A stretch of 64,000 nucleotides of DNA from NCBI GenBank assembly GCA_964016885.1, contig OZ024743.1:221712001-221776000 (forward strand). Direction: 5' to 3'. A program made the position numbers and the translations under genes. How positions within the stretch are numbered: the first letter of the stretch is position 1; every line of letters starts with the position of its first letter. Of this stretch, positions 16-60,473 are shown piece by piece. The DNA is from Eledone cirrhosa (lineage: Eukaryota). The notes below the pieces were generated by a model, which had not been told where the DNA came from, did no database searches, and saw nothing but the letters and a program-made list of their open reading frames with translations.

Positions 16-167
16 GAGGAAGTATGACGCCGACGGCAGAGCTCAAGCCGTTTCGACGGCTATTTCTGGACTCCAGAAATAGCCGTCAATACTCACTCTA
101 CTACCCTAAGTATTGAGTACTCTGGTGCGTTATGGTCCATCTGGTTACTTACCACAACTCCTTCGTT
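16..167 (+). mobile_element. Fold-back mini-element family A (Penelope pLTR-like), partly deleted, in (TA)n
   Basis: Near-identical to 44836-45030 and (reverse) 60273-60473; hairpin gacggctatttctgga-c-tccagaaatagccgtc; unique tail followed by (TA)n. Confidence 0.75.
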
Positions 168-310
168 ATATATATATATATATATATATATATATATATA
201 TATATATATATATATATATATATATATATATATATATATATATATGTATATATATATATGTATATATATATATATATATATATATATATATATATATATA
301 TATATATATA

Positions 311-1338
311 TTGTTATACTTTGGGAGGGTCATGTTGCCAATAAGAAACACACGCACCAGTTGCTTTCACTTCAATTTATTATAATAAATTTGTAAATTT
401 CTGGTTGGTTGGTTGGTTCCACAACCAGATAGTTGTTTATATATTGTCATAGTTCTTTCGTCACACACTCTGTGACCTCTTCAGTGACTGGGGATTCTTT
501 TCTTTGTTTTTGTGCCTCTCCTTTGTTCTGTCCTACGCCATTTTGTTTCTGTGTGTGTGTTGTGTTCTCAGTCTGCGCATGCGCCACATCCGGGTGTCTG
601 TGTGTGTTTATGTTCATTTATTTATTTGTTTATTTACATGTTACTGGTTGGTTGTTTGTTCTATGTGTGTGTGTGTTTTCATTTATTTATTTGTTTATTT
701 ACATGTTACTGGTTGGTTGTTTGTTCTATGTGTGTTTTCACACAAGGGTAAATTAGAGAACATAGAAATAAAAATAGAATCTACACACAGAAAAGACGCA
801 ATGTTTAGACAAATCACAGAGGCAATAAACATAAAAGAATTACAACCAAAATTAAATAGAAAATATGAGTGGAACAGCAACATCACAACTTACAATTAAG
901 GACAAAATGAAAACACACACACACATAGAACAAACAACCAACCAGTAACATATAAATAAACAAATAAATAAATGAACATAAACACACACAGACACCCGGA
1001 TGTGGCGCATGCGCAGACTGAGCACACAACACACACACAGAAACAAAATGGCGTAGGACAGAACAAAGGAGAGGCACAAAAACAAAGAAAAGAATCCCCA
1101 GTCACTGAAGAGGTCATAGAGTGTGTGACGAAAGAACTATGACAATATATAAACAACTATCTGGTTGTGGAACCAACCAACCAACCAGAAATTTATAAAT
1201 TTATTATAATAAATTGAAGTGAAAGCAACTGGTGCGTGTGTTTCTTATTGGCAACATGACCCTCCCAAAGTATAACAATATCGGTTTCAACACACGATTT
1301 CAGATAAAGAATCTTGCTAAACAAATTCAGAAACGAAA
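311..1338 (+). mobile_element. 5'-truncated Penelope-like element with inverted pLTR arm
   Basis: 311-680 is the reverse complement of ~907-1280; spacer encodes GIY-YIG C-terminus (DAMFRQITEAINIKELQPKLNRKYEWN) similar to 54890-54950; tail resembles 55513-55572; (TA)n on both sides. Confidence 0.85.
1101..1143 (+). ncRNA. Minimal type I hammerhead ribozyme
   Basis: gtca-CTGAAGA-g-gtcata/tgtgac stem II-GAAA-gaa-CTA-tgac; stem I gtca/tgac; antisense copy at ~445-488. Confidence 0.75.
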
Positions 1339-1407
1339 TATATATATATATATATATATATATATATATATATATATATATACACACACACACATATATA
1401 TATAATG

Positions 1408-1540
1408 ATAAACATTGATTGCCAGCTAAATTATTTATAAAAATAGAAATGTATACTGAAGCGAAAACCAAACCAAAAAGTGTGTTTCACTTTTTTTCTC
1501 TGTCAATATTAGGACATGACCCTCCCCAAATATAAAATAT
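1408..1540 (+). mobile_element. Diverged Penelope pLTR 3' fragment
   Basis: gaagcgaaaaccaaaccaaa...atgaccctcccc matches 55420-55510 and 1255-1280. Confidence 0.65.
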
Positions 1541-1724
1541 CTATATGTATGTATAGTGTCGTAACTCCTGGTAGAGTCGTAGGGGCCCTATATTGACATA
1601 CAGCGTTTCTTGGACATTTTTAGCCTGGTTGTACCCAACCCTCACCCGGCCTAGGTACAGCAGATTTCTTCCAGAAAAAGATAGAAAGTGAGAAAGAGGA
1701 AATGAAAAAGAGATATAGAGGAAG

Positions 1725-56222: not shown

Positions 56223-56739
56223 TATATATATATATTTATATATATATATATATATATATATATATATATAATGTTAGTATGACACATATAAATATATATT
56301 AACTCTCACACACCAACACATACACAAAATTGGAACCATCGCAACTACTAAGAAGAAGAGAAGAGATGAGAGAGAGGGGCGGAAAGAGGGAGTGAGAGAG
56401 AATGAGAGAGGGGCGGTAAAAGAGAGTGAGAGAGAATGAGAGAGGGGAAAGAGATAGAGATGGATGGGGGGGGGTATAATATGATGACAATTCTCCTAAT
56501 TGTGTCAATGAATCCAATTACAGCCGAGTGAAGAAATGGAAGAAATAAGTGGAAACAATAGGAAGAGACAAAAGCTAGGATCTAGCAACATATCAACATA
56601 TCTGCAAATGCACAATATACTTTTATTGTCTTCCAGAACATTACTCTTTATAGTCGCCTGATTTTAGAGGTAGTGTTGAGTGTTTGTGCATCAAATGCAT
56701 CAAATATTCAAGCAACCGTACAGCATAACATCTAGATAT

Positions 56740-57270
56740 GTATGATGCATGTATATATGTATGATTTCATGTATGTATGCTGGCATGTTTATATGCTGGT
56801 ATGTATATATGCATGTATGTATATATGCAGGCGTGTATATATGTATGATTGCATGTATATATGCTGGCATGTATATATTCTGGTATGTATATATGCCTGT
56901 ATGTATATATGCTGGCGTGTATATATGTATGATTGCATGTATATATGCTGGCATGTATATATTCTGGTATGTATATATGCCTGCATGTATATATGCTGGC
57001 GTGTATATATGCTGGCATGTATATATGTATGATTGCATGTATGTATGATTGCATGTATATATGCTTGCATGTATATATGCTGGCATGTATATGTGGTGAT
57101 ATGAATATATGCTTGCATGTATATATATATTGGTATGTATATATATATGCTGGTATGTATATATATATTGGTATGTATATATGTTTACATGTATATATAT
57201 TTGCATGTATATATGCTTGCATGTATATATGCTAGCGTGTATATATGTGCTGGCGTGTATATATGGCTGC
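56740..57270. repeat. ~16-bp minisatellite (gcatgtatatatgctg)
   Basis: Tandem diverged units. Confidence 0.9.
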
Positions 57271-58124
57271 ATATTATGTTGTATTGTATATATTTTGACG
57301 ATCGTATTTGGTCGTGCTTATTACTGCTATATCGTTCTCACCACGACGACATGAAATATTAAGTGTTATTTGTATCGATGCAATTGTATATATATATATA
57401 TATATATATATAACATACGTACGCATATATATATATATATATATATATATATATATATATATATATACGGGGAGAGAGAGAGTAATGAGAGATGAGAGAG
57501 AGAGATGAGAGCGAGAGAGATGAGAGAGAGATTGATGGGAGCGAGAGAGAGAGAGAGAGAAGGAAAGAGAGAGAGATGTGTATATACACATGTATATATA
57601 CATATAATTACGTATATATATATATATAAATATATGCACGCGCACACACACACACACACACATATATATATACACATACGTGTATACCCACAGAGAGACA
57701 TATATATATATATATATATACGTATATATATATATATATATATATATATATATATATATATATACATACATGTATATATGCATACTTGTATATATGTACA
57801 TACATATACATATACATATACACACACATTTCATATACTATATACAATCATCAGAACTGATGGAATTCAAAATGTCACCTTACTTCAACACAGAAGTAAT
57901 TGGCCAATACCTTCTAGATTCCGAATTGGCTAGGTTTCTTCGTTTCTCAAAATATGTTGTTGTTATTGCTGCAGCTTCTGCCAACCGGATCGTTCCAGTT
58001 ACCGATTTTAACTGGTAGATTAATAGATTTTTTTAGCGTACAATGCCTAGGTTTTGTTGTGACATTGAATTTATTCTCCTTTAATCTGTTGGTTTGTTCT
58101 CGATAATAATAATAATAATAATAA

Positions 58125-58562
58125 TAATTGTTTCTACTTTAGGCACAAGGCCAACACTTTTGGGGAGAGGGAAAAGTCGATTAAATCGACCCTAGTGCAT
58201 TACAGGTACTTTATTTTATCGACCCCGTAAGAATGAAAGGCAAAGTTAACCTCGGTGGGATTTGAACTCAGAACGTAAATTGACGTAACTATGCCGCGAA
58301 GCAAGGTGTCCAATGCTCTATCGATTCTGCCAATCCGCAATAATAATAATTGTTTCTACCTTCGGCACAAGGCGAGCAATTTGGTGGGAGGGGAAGTCGA
58401 TTAAATCGACTCCAGTGCATTACTGGTACTTTATTTTATCGACCCCATAAGGATGAAAGGCAAAGCTAAACTCGGTGGGAATTAAACTCAGAATATAAAA
58501 AAAAGCTGCAATTAAATACCACAAGGTATTTTGTCTACCGTTCTAACAATTCTGTCATTCCA
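58125..58562 (-). mobile_element. Two tandem OK-like SINEs (58125-58338, 58345-58562)
   Basis: Each has a (TAA)n tail, Meta-like core and B-box. Confidence 0.85.
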
Positions 58563-60272
58563 AATAAAATTTTTAAAAATTAATAGATTTTTTTTAAATT
58601 TAAAAATATAAGAGAAATAATAGGGAAAAATAGAAAACGTAAAAATTATTGGGAAAACTCTAGGAGCACTTAAAAGCAGGATTGGGGGTACTTTCCAATC
58701 TGAAGAGACATTTTAGTGTTTAAAAAAAACAATCATAATTGAAAGTCTTGGAGCCACAAAATTTATTGTAAACAAAAATTCAAGAAAACACGATTTTTTA
58801 AAACTGTTTTTCTTATTCAATTCGATACTTGGCTGTGAAACTTTGAAAATATTTCAATGTCCGGGCCATAAGGTGACAGATGTATTAAAATAAGAATTAG
58901 AATTTCAGTGCACCTAAGAACCAGTAGAGATGGTCTAAAGCACCGCAGGGTCTCGATCTCTGCATTAGAGAATTAGCAACGACGACGACAACAACAGCAG
59001 CAGCAACAACGTCGACGACACTAACAACACAACAGCAGCAACAACGTCGACGACACTAACAACAGCAGCAGCAACGACGACAACTACAACAACAGCAGCA
59101 GCAACGACGACGGCACCAACAACAACAACAGCAGCAACGTCGACGACGCCAACAGCTGTGACATCAACAATAGCAACAACTTCAATATTGACAACAATAG
59201 AAATAGGTGCAAAAGCAACAACAACAACTACCGTAGCGACAACAACAATAGCAACAAAGTCAATAGCACAAATGCAGCAGTACGTACAGCAGCGGAAAAT
59301 GCAGTTACAATTGCAATAGCAACAATATCAGCAACTGCTGCAGCGACCAACTGCAGTAGTATTAATTACGCTAGCAACAACTGCACTAAAAACAATTGCA
59401 CCAATAAATGCAGTAACGTCAAAGTGTTTTAGCAACAAACAGATTACAGTGGCAACAATTGCAACAATAATATGCAAAGCAGTTACAGCAGGTACAGGAA
59501 CAAAAGTGTGCAACTACCATAGTTAAAGCAGCAGCAACTGCAGCTACTAAAAATAATAAGAACAACAATAGCAATGATTGAGTCAAAATAAATTTATGAA
59601 ATATCAAATACCAGCTTCACACGGGCTAGAAAACGATCTCTGCTCATCAATTATATGATAAATACCATTATCAATACACTCACACACACACACAAACACA
59701 CACACACACACACACACACACACAGACACACATATATATATATATATATATATATATATATATATATATATATATATATATATATATATAAGAAAAATGG
59801 AGTGCTGCGTGGTTGCACATGGGTTACATATGAATAAAATTAGTCCTTCATCAGTGATCTTCCAACCTACATTGGTATTTCATCACTTTAAAAATCATAT
59901 ATTTGGTTGGTGCGAGCAATAACTAAATAAAGTTATTGGGACAAGTAAAATAGGGTGAAACGAACGAGACATGTAAACAAACAAAGATGGTATTGCAACG
60001 GAAAGATAGGAAGTGTCAAGTACATGATATCTGTAAACTTAAGCTTGGTGAAATCACGAACGAGAGATACAGACCATCCGACCTGGGTGAGATGTGAGCG
60101 AGAAAAGTATTCCACACAGGTCAAACAGGAGGAAGTGGGAGAGGGGAAGAAGCAGAGAGTGAGTGGAAGTGTGAGGAAGAGGCCAGCTGGGAGAGAGTGT
60201 AACTGGCAGAGGGGTTAAAAAGAAGGTGAGAGATACAGATATATATATATATATATATATATATATATATAT

Positions 60273-60473
60273 AACGAAGGAGTTGTGGTAAGGAACCAGA
60301 TGAACCATAACGCACCAGAGTACTCAATACTTAGGGTAGTACAGTGGGTAATAGGAAAAGGCATGACCCCGACGGCAGAGCTCAAGCCGTTTCGACGGCT
60401 ATGTCTGGACTTAGCCGTCCAGACATAGCCATCGAAATGGCTTGAGCTCTGCCGTCGGGGTCATACATTTTCC
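60273..60473 (-). mobile_element. Fold-back mini-element family A
   Basis: Reverse complement of the 44836-45030 layout; (TA)n flanks. Confidence 0.8.

Follow-up and report, generated by a model that had tools for sequence, protein, structure and literature searches.

How Penelope-like elements (PLEs) form inverted ends, solo pseudo-long terminal repeats (pLTRs), and tandem copies is an open question (PMC8557442, PMC11167929). In PLEs of the Hydra clade the pLTR carries a hammerhead ribozyme and insertion is targeted to (TA)n (Craig et al. 2021, PMC8557442), and metazoan genomes hold thousands of single or opposite-strand hammerhead motifs described as "probably related to truncated PLEs" (Cervera and de la Pena 2014, PMC4209133). 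We analyzed a 64,000-nt stretch of the Eledone cirrhosa genome (GenBank assembly GCA_964016885.1, contig OZ024743.1, positions 221,712,001 to 221,776,000, forward strand; hereafter the window), in which a first-pass annotation had marked 19 short inserts and two longer elements of the same layout in or next to (TA)n tracts. The elements themselves belong to this known group and have its known layout. What is probably new is a fixed, likely promoter-defined 5′ limit, here called the wall, that is common to several families of the short inserts, or stubs; a literature search, made mostly without subscription papers and supplements (which may describe the families), found no published account of it. 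The stubs do form a distinct size class, and this is the part of the first-pass annotation's claim to novelty that stands: the layout, the tail, the TA bias, and the scattered minimal hammerheads are all in print (PMC8557442, PMC4209133, PMC3846280).

The likeness to the Hydra clade extends to the protein, with a C-terminal GIY-YIG domain, a DKT motif, a CxCX5C linker, and CxxC and CxH motifs (PMC8557442). The inverted, 5′-truncated copy with a one-sided tail, also present here, is in that account a trait of the whole PLE group. The families studied here differ in having RWR for RWK, a 3.5-kb unit with a 1.1-kb 3′ untranslated region (UTR), where most Hydra elements are shorter than 3 kb, and tails of 55–90 nt rather than 30–40; the available text of that account mentions neither a fixed 5′ wall nor a dominant stub class. 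Like metazoan PLE hammerheads (PMC4209133), those found here have a short palindromic helix III and a U3-A8 core variant. Their density by descriptor, however, comes to about 1 per 15 kb when a sample of 80 10-kb stretches, evenly spaced through the genome (800 kb), is extrapolated, and the stubs of family A systematically lose the core strand because their 5′ limit falls in loop II. In Anolis Poseidon (Frangieh et al. 2024, PMC11167929), both target strands are cut and extended, two reverse transcription (RT) starts bracket the tail, as appears to be the case here, and ribozyme cleavage is dispensable for insertion in vitro. That work defines the 3′ starts, and its available text does not take up a 5′ run-off class. 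Drosophila Penelope (Schostak et al. 2008, PMC2377424) and Adineta elements (Arkhipova et al. 2013, PMC3846280) share with our families an upstream-pLTR transcript start (a putative one here) with TATA and initiator-like motifs, inverted-junction palindromes, and solo pLTRs. In the Adineta work the palindromes are explained by self-priming with an antisense template, and the solo pLTRs by recombination or deletion; unlike in that account, tens of thousands of separate insertions here end at a likely start site. Metazoan non-LTR retrozymes (PMC7229834; bioRxiv 10.64898/2026.07.22.740005) resemble the stubs in being noncoding and pLTR-related and in carrying a type I hammerhead, but they consist of monomers in tandem, each with a whole ribozyme, whereas the stubs are single or head to head, often hold half a ribozyme, and have RT start sites as their boundaries.

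The 19 short inserts were all found in place, as were the two longer elements. Self-BLAST of the window recovered the four families proposed (A, C, D, and E), and a sequence search for each, with 40 places scored per search, found them repeated throughout the 3.0-Gb, microsatellite-rich assembly. The inserts, their families, and their targeting of (TA)n are real. A tract adjoins at least one side of 17 of the 19 inserts by a loose test (3 TA units within ~20 nt); in the 800-kb sample, only 8.1% of bases are no more than 10 nt away from a TA tract at least 8 nt long, a background whose criteria are not identical to those of the insert test. The shared layout with an inverted arm holds for part of the set: long inverted arms occur in 10 of 19 inserts and a short palindrome in that at 16, and six inserts have neither. 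Similarly, most inserts had been said to carry all or part of a hammerhead core, and the CUGANGA core is present in 7 of 19, with a complete type I motif, by descriptor, in only 4.

Coding parents were located for families A, D, and E and for the type represented by the insert at 20756, which bears out the proposal that the inserts are severely truncated products of several TA-targeting Penelope lineages. The family A parent, with open frames of 784–788 amino acids, occurs as tandem 3,542-bp units (frames of 784–786 amino acids), in which RT motifs were recognized by eye and of which the pLTR is the family A sequence. One array (G000:C1:91,473,000-91,488,000) holds at least five 3.54-kb units, two of them with open frames shown. 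All 150 scored matches to the family A open reading frame (ORF) were at least 95% identical, and copies elsewhere extend upstream to variable points, into the GIY-YIG domain. The protein has 2,032 homologues, the top match being annotated PF01541; Pfam gave no match on a 345-residue piece. By eye it shows DKT, RWR for RWK, the CxCX5C linker, CxxC, and CxH, with no CCHH, and so appears to fit the Hydra-clade motif set.

For the other parents the link is a tblastn match to part of the frame only. A family D tail (82 nt, 91% identical to window 45591-45672) passes directly into a related frame in locus L386 (E = 5e-77), family E tails enter the start of a related frame in L196 and L346, and the 20756 type lies 904 nt downstream of a related Hydra-type endonuclease in the long copy L274. 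Upstream walks reached no endonuclease in family D (2.7 kb of noncoding sequence) or family E; the links came from the tail side. Four long family D copies (L223-L226) contain a 32-bp minisatellite of ~35–100 units within a noncoding 3′ region of at least 2.7 kb. The predicted parents are thus endonuclease-positive PLEs with a single ORF combining RT with a GIY-YIG domain at the C terminus, and tandem-derived pLTRs, inverted 5′-truncated copies, and one-sided tails are all present in their families. We are nearly certain that the A, D, E, and 20756-type inserts are pLTRs of coding PLEs and not independent retrozymes. The retrozyme-like, nonautonomous system that had been suggested finds no support in the stubs, which are not tandem cleavage-to-cleavage units, do not end at the cleavage site, mostly lack a complete core, and vary in their arm junctions from locus to locus. 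All are single or inverted pairs, with no tandem noncoding retrozyme units among them; the only tandem units seen were the coding ones of family A and a few short local repeats.

The wall is clearest in family A. Sixty arms were taken without selection by a family A query, from the evenly spaced genome sample and from sequence flanking loci retrieved for other families; in 57 of them homology to the parent ends within 23 nt upstream of the GAAA box (47 of 49 in a separate count). Exact whole-genome probes, which count inverted arms separately, gave 39,239 matches at position 0, 3,066 at −52, 2,281 at −231, and 1,443 at −1321, and the first two match 22 and 27 of 30 long copies, respectively. 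Contig depths from three runs of unrecorded kind, which are not copy numbers, also show a step at the stub region. In family C, 26 of the first 30 of 243 exact matches stop at a fixed point, as do 28 of 30 loci in family D (both by eye); neither family has a match in the 800-kb sample, so these two walls rest on search-selected loci. Family E arms start mostly near −6, and a wall is seen in 8–9 of 9 copies of the 20756 type. The wall sits at −18 or −22 from the GAAA box in family A and at −9 in family C. Relative to the ribozyme, it falls in loop II in family A and at the edge of stem I in families C and E; in family D it precedes the ribozyme by 35 nt, and in the 20756 type by 69 nt.

Upstream of the wall, a TATA-like box is found at a distance of 29–31 nt in all three subfamily copies of family A and all five copies of family E, and at −28 to −30 in three of four long family C copies; the background is 403 of 35,693 positions (1.1%). 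Direct-only family A stubs carry an extra base before the A at the wall. After TATATAT this base is G in 105 cases and C in 12 (background 1396:328), and after TATATATA it is G in 20 and C in 29 (background 265:1075), giving p values for the G excess of 0.007 and 0.0006. An untemplated C or G occurs at 166 junctions at −18 versus 4 at −15, three bases further in. A hand count of family E direct junctions found, among those listed, 12 with G versus 2 with the parent's C. In L1 and SVA, an untemplated 5′ G has been read as a copied cap (PMC4859970), and Penelope transcripts are known to start within the upstream pLTR (PMC2377424, PMC8557442). The TATA spacing, the untemplated G, and this known start site lead us to read the wall as a putative transcription start.

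The 3′ ends are equally confined. The 60 unselected family A arms end at an inner site (26), at the tail end (23), elsewhere (9), or at no end that could be assigned (2), and 49 join (TA)n exactly at one of the two sites, which resemble the two RT start sites of Poseidon (PMC11167929). Arm–arm junctions differ among loci. In 22 of 30 loci the two arms carry the same subfamily letters, and arms differ at 5.1 positions per 50 nt within a locus versus 10.7 between loci. Differing junctions and a mostly common subfamily point to separate events, in which both arms usually came from one RNA or one subfamily. Among arms holding the GAAA box, a count that leaves out shorter stubs lacking it, no class ends at the cleavage site. 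Fold-back of cDNA on stem II is ruled out, as the junctions are the reverse complement of the 3′ strand and not the natural loop. The tails of families A, C, and E, otherwise unrelated, have an 11-nt motif in common (for example, window 44975-44985) that resembles a splice donor or a downstream promoter element; at the matching place, an intron occurs in Drosophila Penelope (PMC2377424).

Hammerheads were predicted with a relaxed type I descriptor, which finds complete motifs in four inserts (16747, 17229, 20820, and 23689) and gave 53 matches in the 800-kb sample, from many unrelated families, versus 0–2 in five shuffles. A strict descriptor misses most motifs, in which stem II begins with a bulge or mismatch, and a U3-A8 descriptor is noisy, with 7 matches in 800 kb versus 2–5 in four shuffles. 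An Rfam scan returned no hammerhead among the 150 of 285 matches listed, only microsatellite-driven miRNA matches, and in single-strand folding the hammerhead shape was a significant fold in only one of five inserts tried. Complete hammerheads were found by descriptor in 21 of 30 family D loci, 5 of 30 and 8 of 30 in family C, and 6 of 30 in family E. Long family A copies have a complete type I hammerhead with a U3-A8 core in 20 of 30 cases, as do all three array units. The family A stubs have none (0 of 30 by descriptor); with the wall inside loop II, the core strand is gone and only the GAAA half is kept. A minimal type I hammerhead, with core boxes, three stems, and an NUH site, is therefore predicted at the level of the family. 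Two identical U3-A8 hammerheads lie 595 nt apart in the same direction at another locus (L291:2379 and L291:2974), with relatives in L276, L278, and L327; by sequence this pair is a possible true retrozyme. Around the GAAA box of family A (window 44903-44932), a hexamer occurs twice, and each of the two repeats is a potential pairing partner for the 5′ strand of stem III; in related subfamilies this strand and both hexamers change together, a possible alternative fold.

We consider it probable that the stubs are run-off cDNAs of a capped RNA begun at the pLTR promoter and inserted into (TA)n. The element endonuclease would cut both strands of a TA tract, and each cut 3′ end would serve as a primer on the same RNA, with reverse transcription starting at either the inner site or the end of the tail. 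The resulting cDNAs would both run off the RNA 5′ end, after ~60 or 140 nt in family A, and then be joined head to head by microhomology, or one would be joined to the target alone. Long copies would arise by priming at a downstream pLTR of a multimeric (or circular) RNA. In family A, the RNA would start in loop II of the U3-A8 hammerhead, leaving promoter-proximal RNA and stubs with half a ribozyme incapable of self-cleavage in cis.

Several observations weigh against this reading. The 12.8-fold step between the first two family A probes is overstated and is roughly tenfold, the upstream probe missing at least one subfamily. The TATA motif set was picked after the sequences had been viewed, and the family C variant lies outside the set used for the background. 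No TATA box precedes the wall in family D (0 of 3) or the 20756 type (0 of 3), where the context is only an initiator-like pyrimidine-A. The G excess is modest (odds ratios of 2.1 and 2.8). The families of the longer elements at 311 and 52461 have no wall near the ribozyme, and no parent ORF was found for family C in 30 tail loci or in 5 upstream flanks in the same orientation; frames near family C and other singletons belong to other families or lie behind TA tracts. Finally, of 18 full-ORF junctions examined, 4 lacked an anchor, and 12 of the 14 anchored ones (two from one array) extend ~100 nt or more beyond the wall, with another near −59; only L222 begins at the wall (−17). Long copies therefore need another template, and we take them to derive mostly from multimeric or circular RNA, and the stubs in turn need either a strong preference for the 5′-most pLTR or abundant short transcripts. 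Approximately three thousand pLTR copies that keep the promoter region are a candidate source of the latter.

The passage of 12 of 14 full-ORF junctions beyond the wall would also be expected if, with the same parents, the wall were a roadblock: on a long RNA, RT that was primed in the 3′ pLTR would abort early where a protein is bound or the RNA is folded, and long copies would come only from complexes that escape, passing the site on a later round. The position of the wall in or at the edge of the hammerhead in families A, C, and E agrees with this explanation, which deserves some weight but which we think unlikely. The position relative to the ribozyme varies by family, neither the TATA spacing nor the extra G is predicted, and untemplated C or G, common at −18 and rare at −15, behaves as at a physical template end. 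We see a rather small chance for a cycle with a retrovirus-like strong-stop DNA, in which RT, primed in the 5′ pLTR, would run off at the capped end and would have to switch to the 3′ pLTR for the gene to be copied. The promoter would split the 5′ hammerhead, leaving only the 3′ one to cut; the stubs would be failed jumps, ~10:1 over successes, and direct-only stubs might acquire a new TATA box from the (TA)n into which they insert. In one family D copy, L391, the tail leads into the first codons of the ORF, showing that priming on a pLTR–ORF junction does occur; yet just 1 of the 14 full-ORF copies halts at the wall on the second pass.

The stubs might instead propagate themselves, as nonautonomous elements that resemble short interspersed elements or retrozymes and of which each is transcribed and copied as a unit. 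The ~tenfold step over long copies, the direct-only stubs that abut TA at the start site (where the (TA)n target could supply the TATA box left behind), and the putatively nonautonomous pLTR-bearing elements of Chlamys (PMC8557442) would all suit such units, as would 23 of 24 loci from one query with a near-identical junction type. Those 23 loci, however, were selected by a query holding that junction; centers vary, and the unselected junctions all differ. The stubs bring no flanking sequence with them, the core strand is present in 0 of 30 family A stubs, and no stub ends at the cleavage site; we hold self-propagation to be improbable. Ordinary random 5′ truncation with a steep length decay has in its favor that truncation with inversion is normal for such elements (PMC8557442) and that long copies end at variable places, but copy number falls ~tenfold within ~30 nt and then only ~twofold over the next 1.3 kb. 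Nor is a search artifact readily reconciled with a wall present in evenly spaced genome samples chosen by no query; either explanation seems very improbable. To miniature inverted-repeat elements of DNA transposons, which the palindromic shape and TA flanks bring to mind, we give almost no credence. The tails are one-sided, the centers vary, there is no internal spacer, direct-only copies exist, and continuity with RT and GIY-YIG frames rules such elements out for A, D, E, and the 20756 type (not for family C or the unlinked singletons). The first-pass annotation had named the findings that would point this way; we looked for them and found no DNA-transposon terminal inverted repeats, while links to Penelope ORFs and a conserved core were present.

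In the window, the family A type copy (44836..45031, plus strand) has an inverted arm (44836-44891) starting at the inner priming site and a direct arm that runs from the wall (~44893) through the hammerhead 3′ half to the inner site (~44950), an 80-nt tail, and (TA)n. A second family A stub (16..166, plus) has an inverted arm, a rearranged short direct piece, a tail, and (TA)n on both sides, with no core strand; a diverged relative (16393..16587, minus) is a fold-back with its tail on the left arm, and a fold-back stub of a second subfamily (60273..60476, minus) also has a tail. Family C is represented by fold-back stubs at 21284..21450 (plus; hammerhead 3′ half only), 26446..26632 (plus; core strand on the inverted arm, at 26517, minus), and 46215..46337 (no strand assigned, no tail). 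The direct-only family D stub at 23648..23822 (plus) runs from the wall to the inner priming site with a complete hammerhead at 23689, and the fold-back one at 45479..45672 (plus) has the tail that enters the Hydra-type ORF in L386. Family E comprises a 3′ fragment with cleavage site and tail (30553..30655, plus), an inverted-arm fragment (35785..35830, minus), and a fold-back stub with a damaged core and a tail (45689..45852, plus). The direct-only stub of the 20756 type (20755..21006, plus) begins at its family wall, 65–70 nt before the core of a complete hammerhead at 20820.

The remaining inserts are a singleton at 16730..16990 (plus) whose type I hammerhead, at 16747, is complete and which has (TA)n at the right and no linked parent; a member of a multicopy hammerhead family at 17040..17160 (minus), its core at 17103 and its stem I imperfect in this copy; a fold-back stub at 17158..17343 (plus) with a hammerhead at 17229 (GUU triplet), a tail, and (TA)n; a large fold-back at 23908..24240 (no strand assigned), a 267-nt palindrome of 98% identity with a degenerate U3-A8-type motif (by eye); a singleton at 30795..30935 (plus) whose core at 30824 is incomplete by descriptor; and a U3-A8 stub at 45098..45185 (plus), read by eye as a minimal hammerhead with a 3-bp stem I. 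The two longer elements had been described as coding Penelope copies, which holds for one of them with qualification. That at 52461..55571 (plus) is coding but 5′-truncated and broken in frame, with RT and GIY-YIG motifs, a CX4CxxC linker, an inverted arm (52476-52664), a hammerhead-like motif at 55270, and a tail; Pfam gave no match in two of its protein fragments. The other, at 312..1337 (plus), is a 5′-truncated copy that retains only the last ~60 codons of the GIY-YIG end, together with an inverted arm (312-495), a 3′ UTR, a tail, and a minimal hammerhead read by eye at 1105.

Other features of the window are an open 1,101-residue frame of a long interspersed nuclear element (31233-34538, minus) with endonuclease, RT, and zf-RVT domains, fragments of which recur at 48734-49284 and 51458-52121, and a separate 404-residue frame without a Pfam match (39064-40278, minus). 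A perfect 216-bp inverted repeat with a 530-bp spacer (37820-38035 and 38567-38782), outside the inserts first marked, may be a further young inverted insertion. A short interspersed repeat, very abundant, contributes more than 15 pieces, at 1727, 7669, 14277, 19555, 30313, 36039, 50921, 58113, 63376, and other sites.

If the wall is a transcription start, tens of thousands of insertions would map the promoter of each family, together with both RT starts, from DNA alone, and genomes littered with half or lone hammerheads would be explained. Caution is due where hammerheads or "retrozyme monomers" are counted in genomes of this kind, as such counts may largely record dead by-products. Under the same reading, two-sided priming with a capped, sense-strand RNA as template would become a better explanation than antisense self-priming for the way in which Penelope-like elements acquire their inverted ends.

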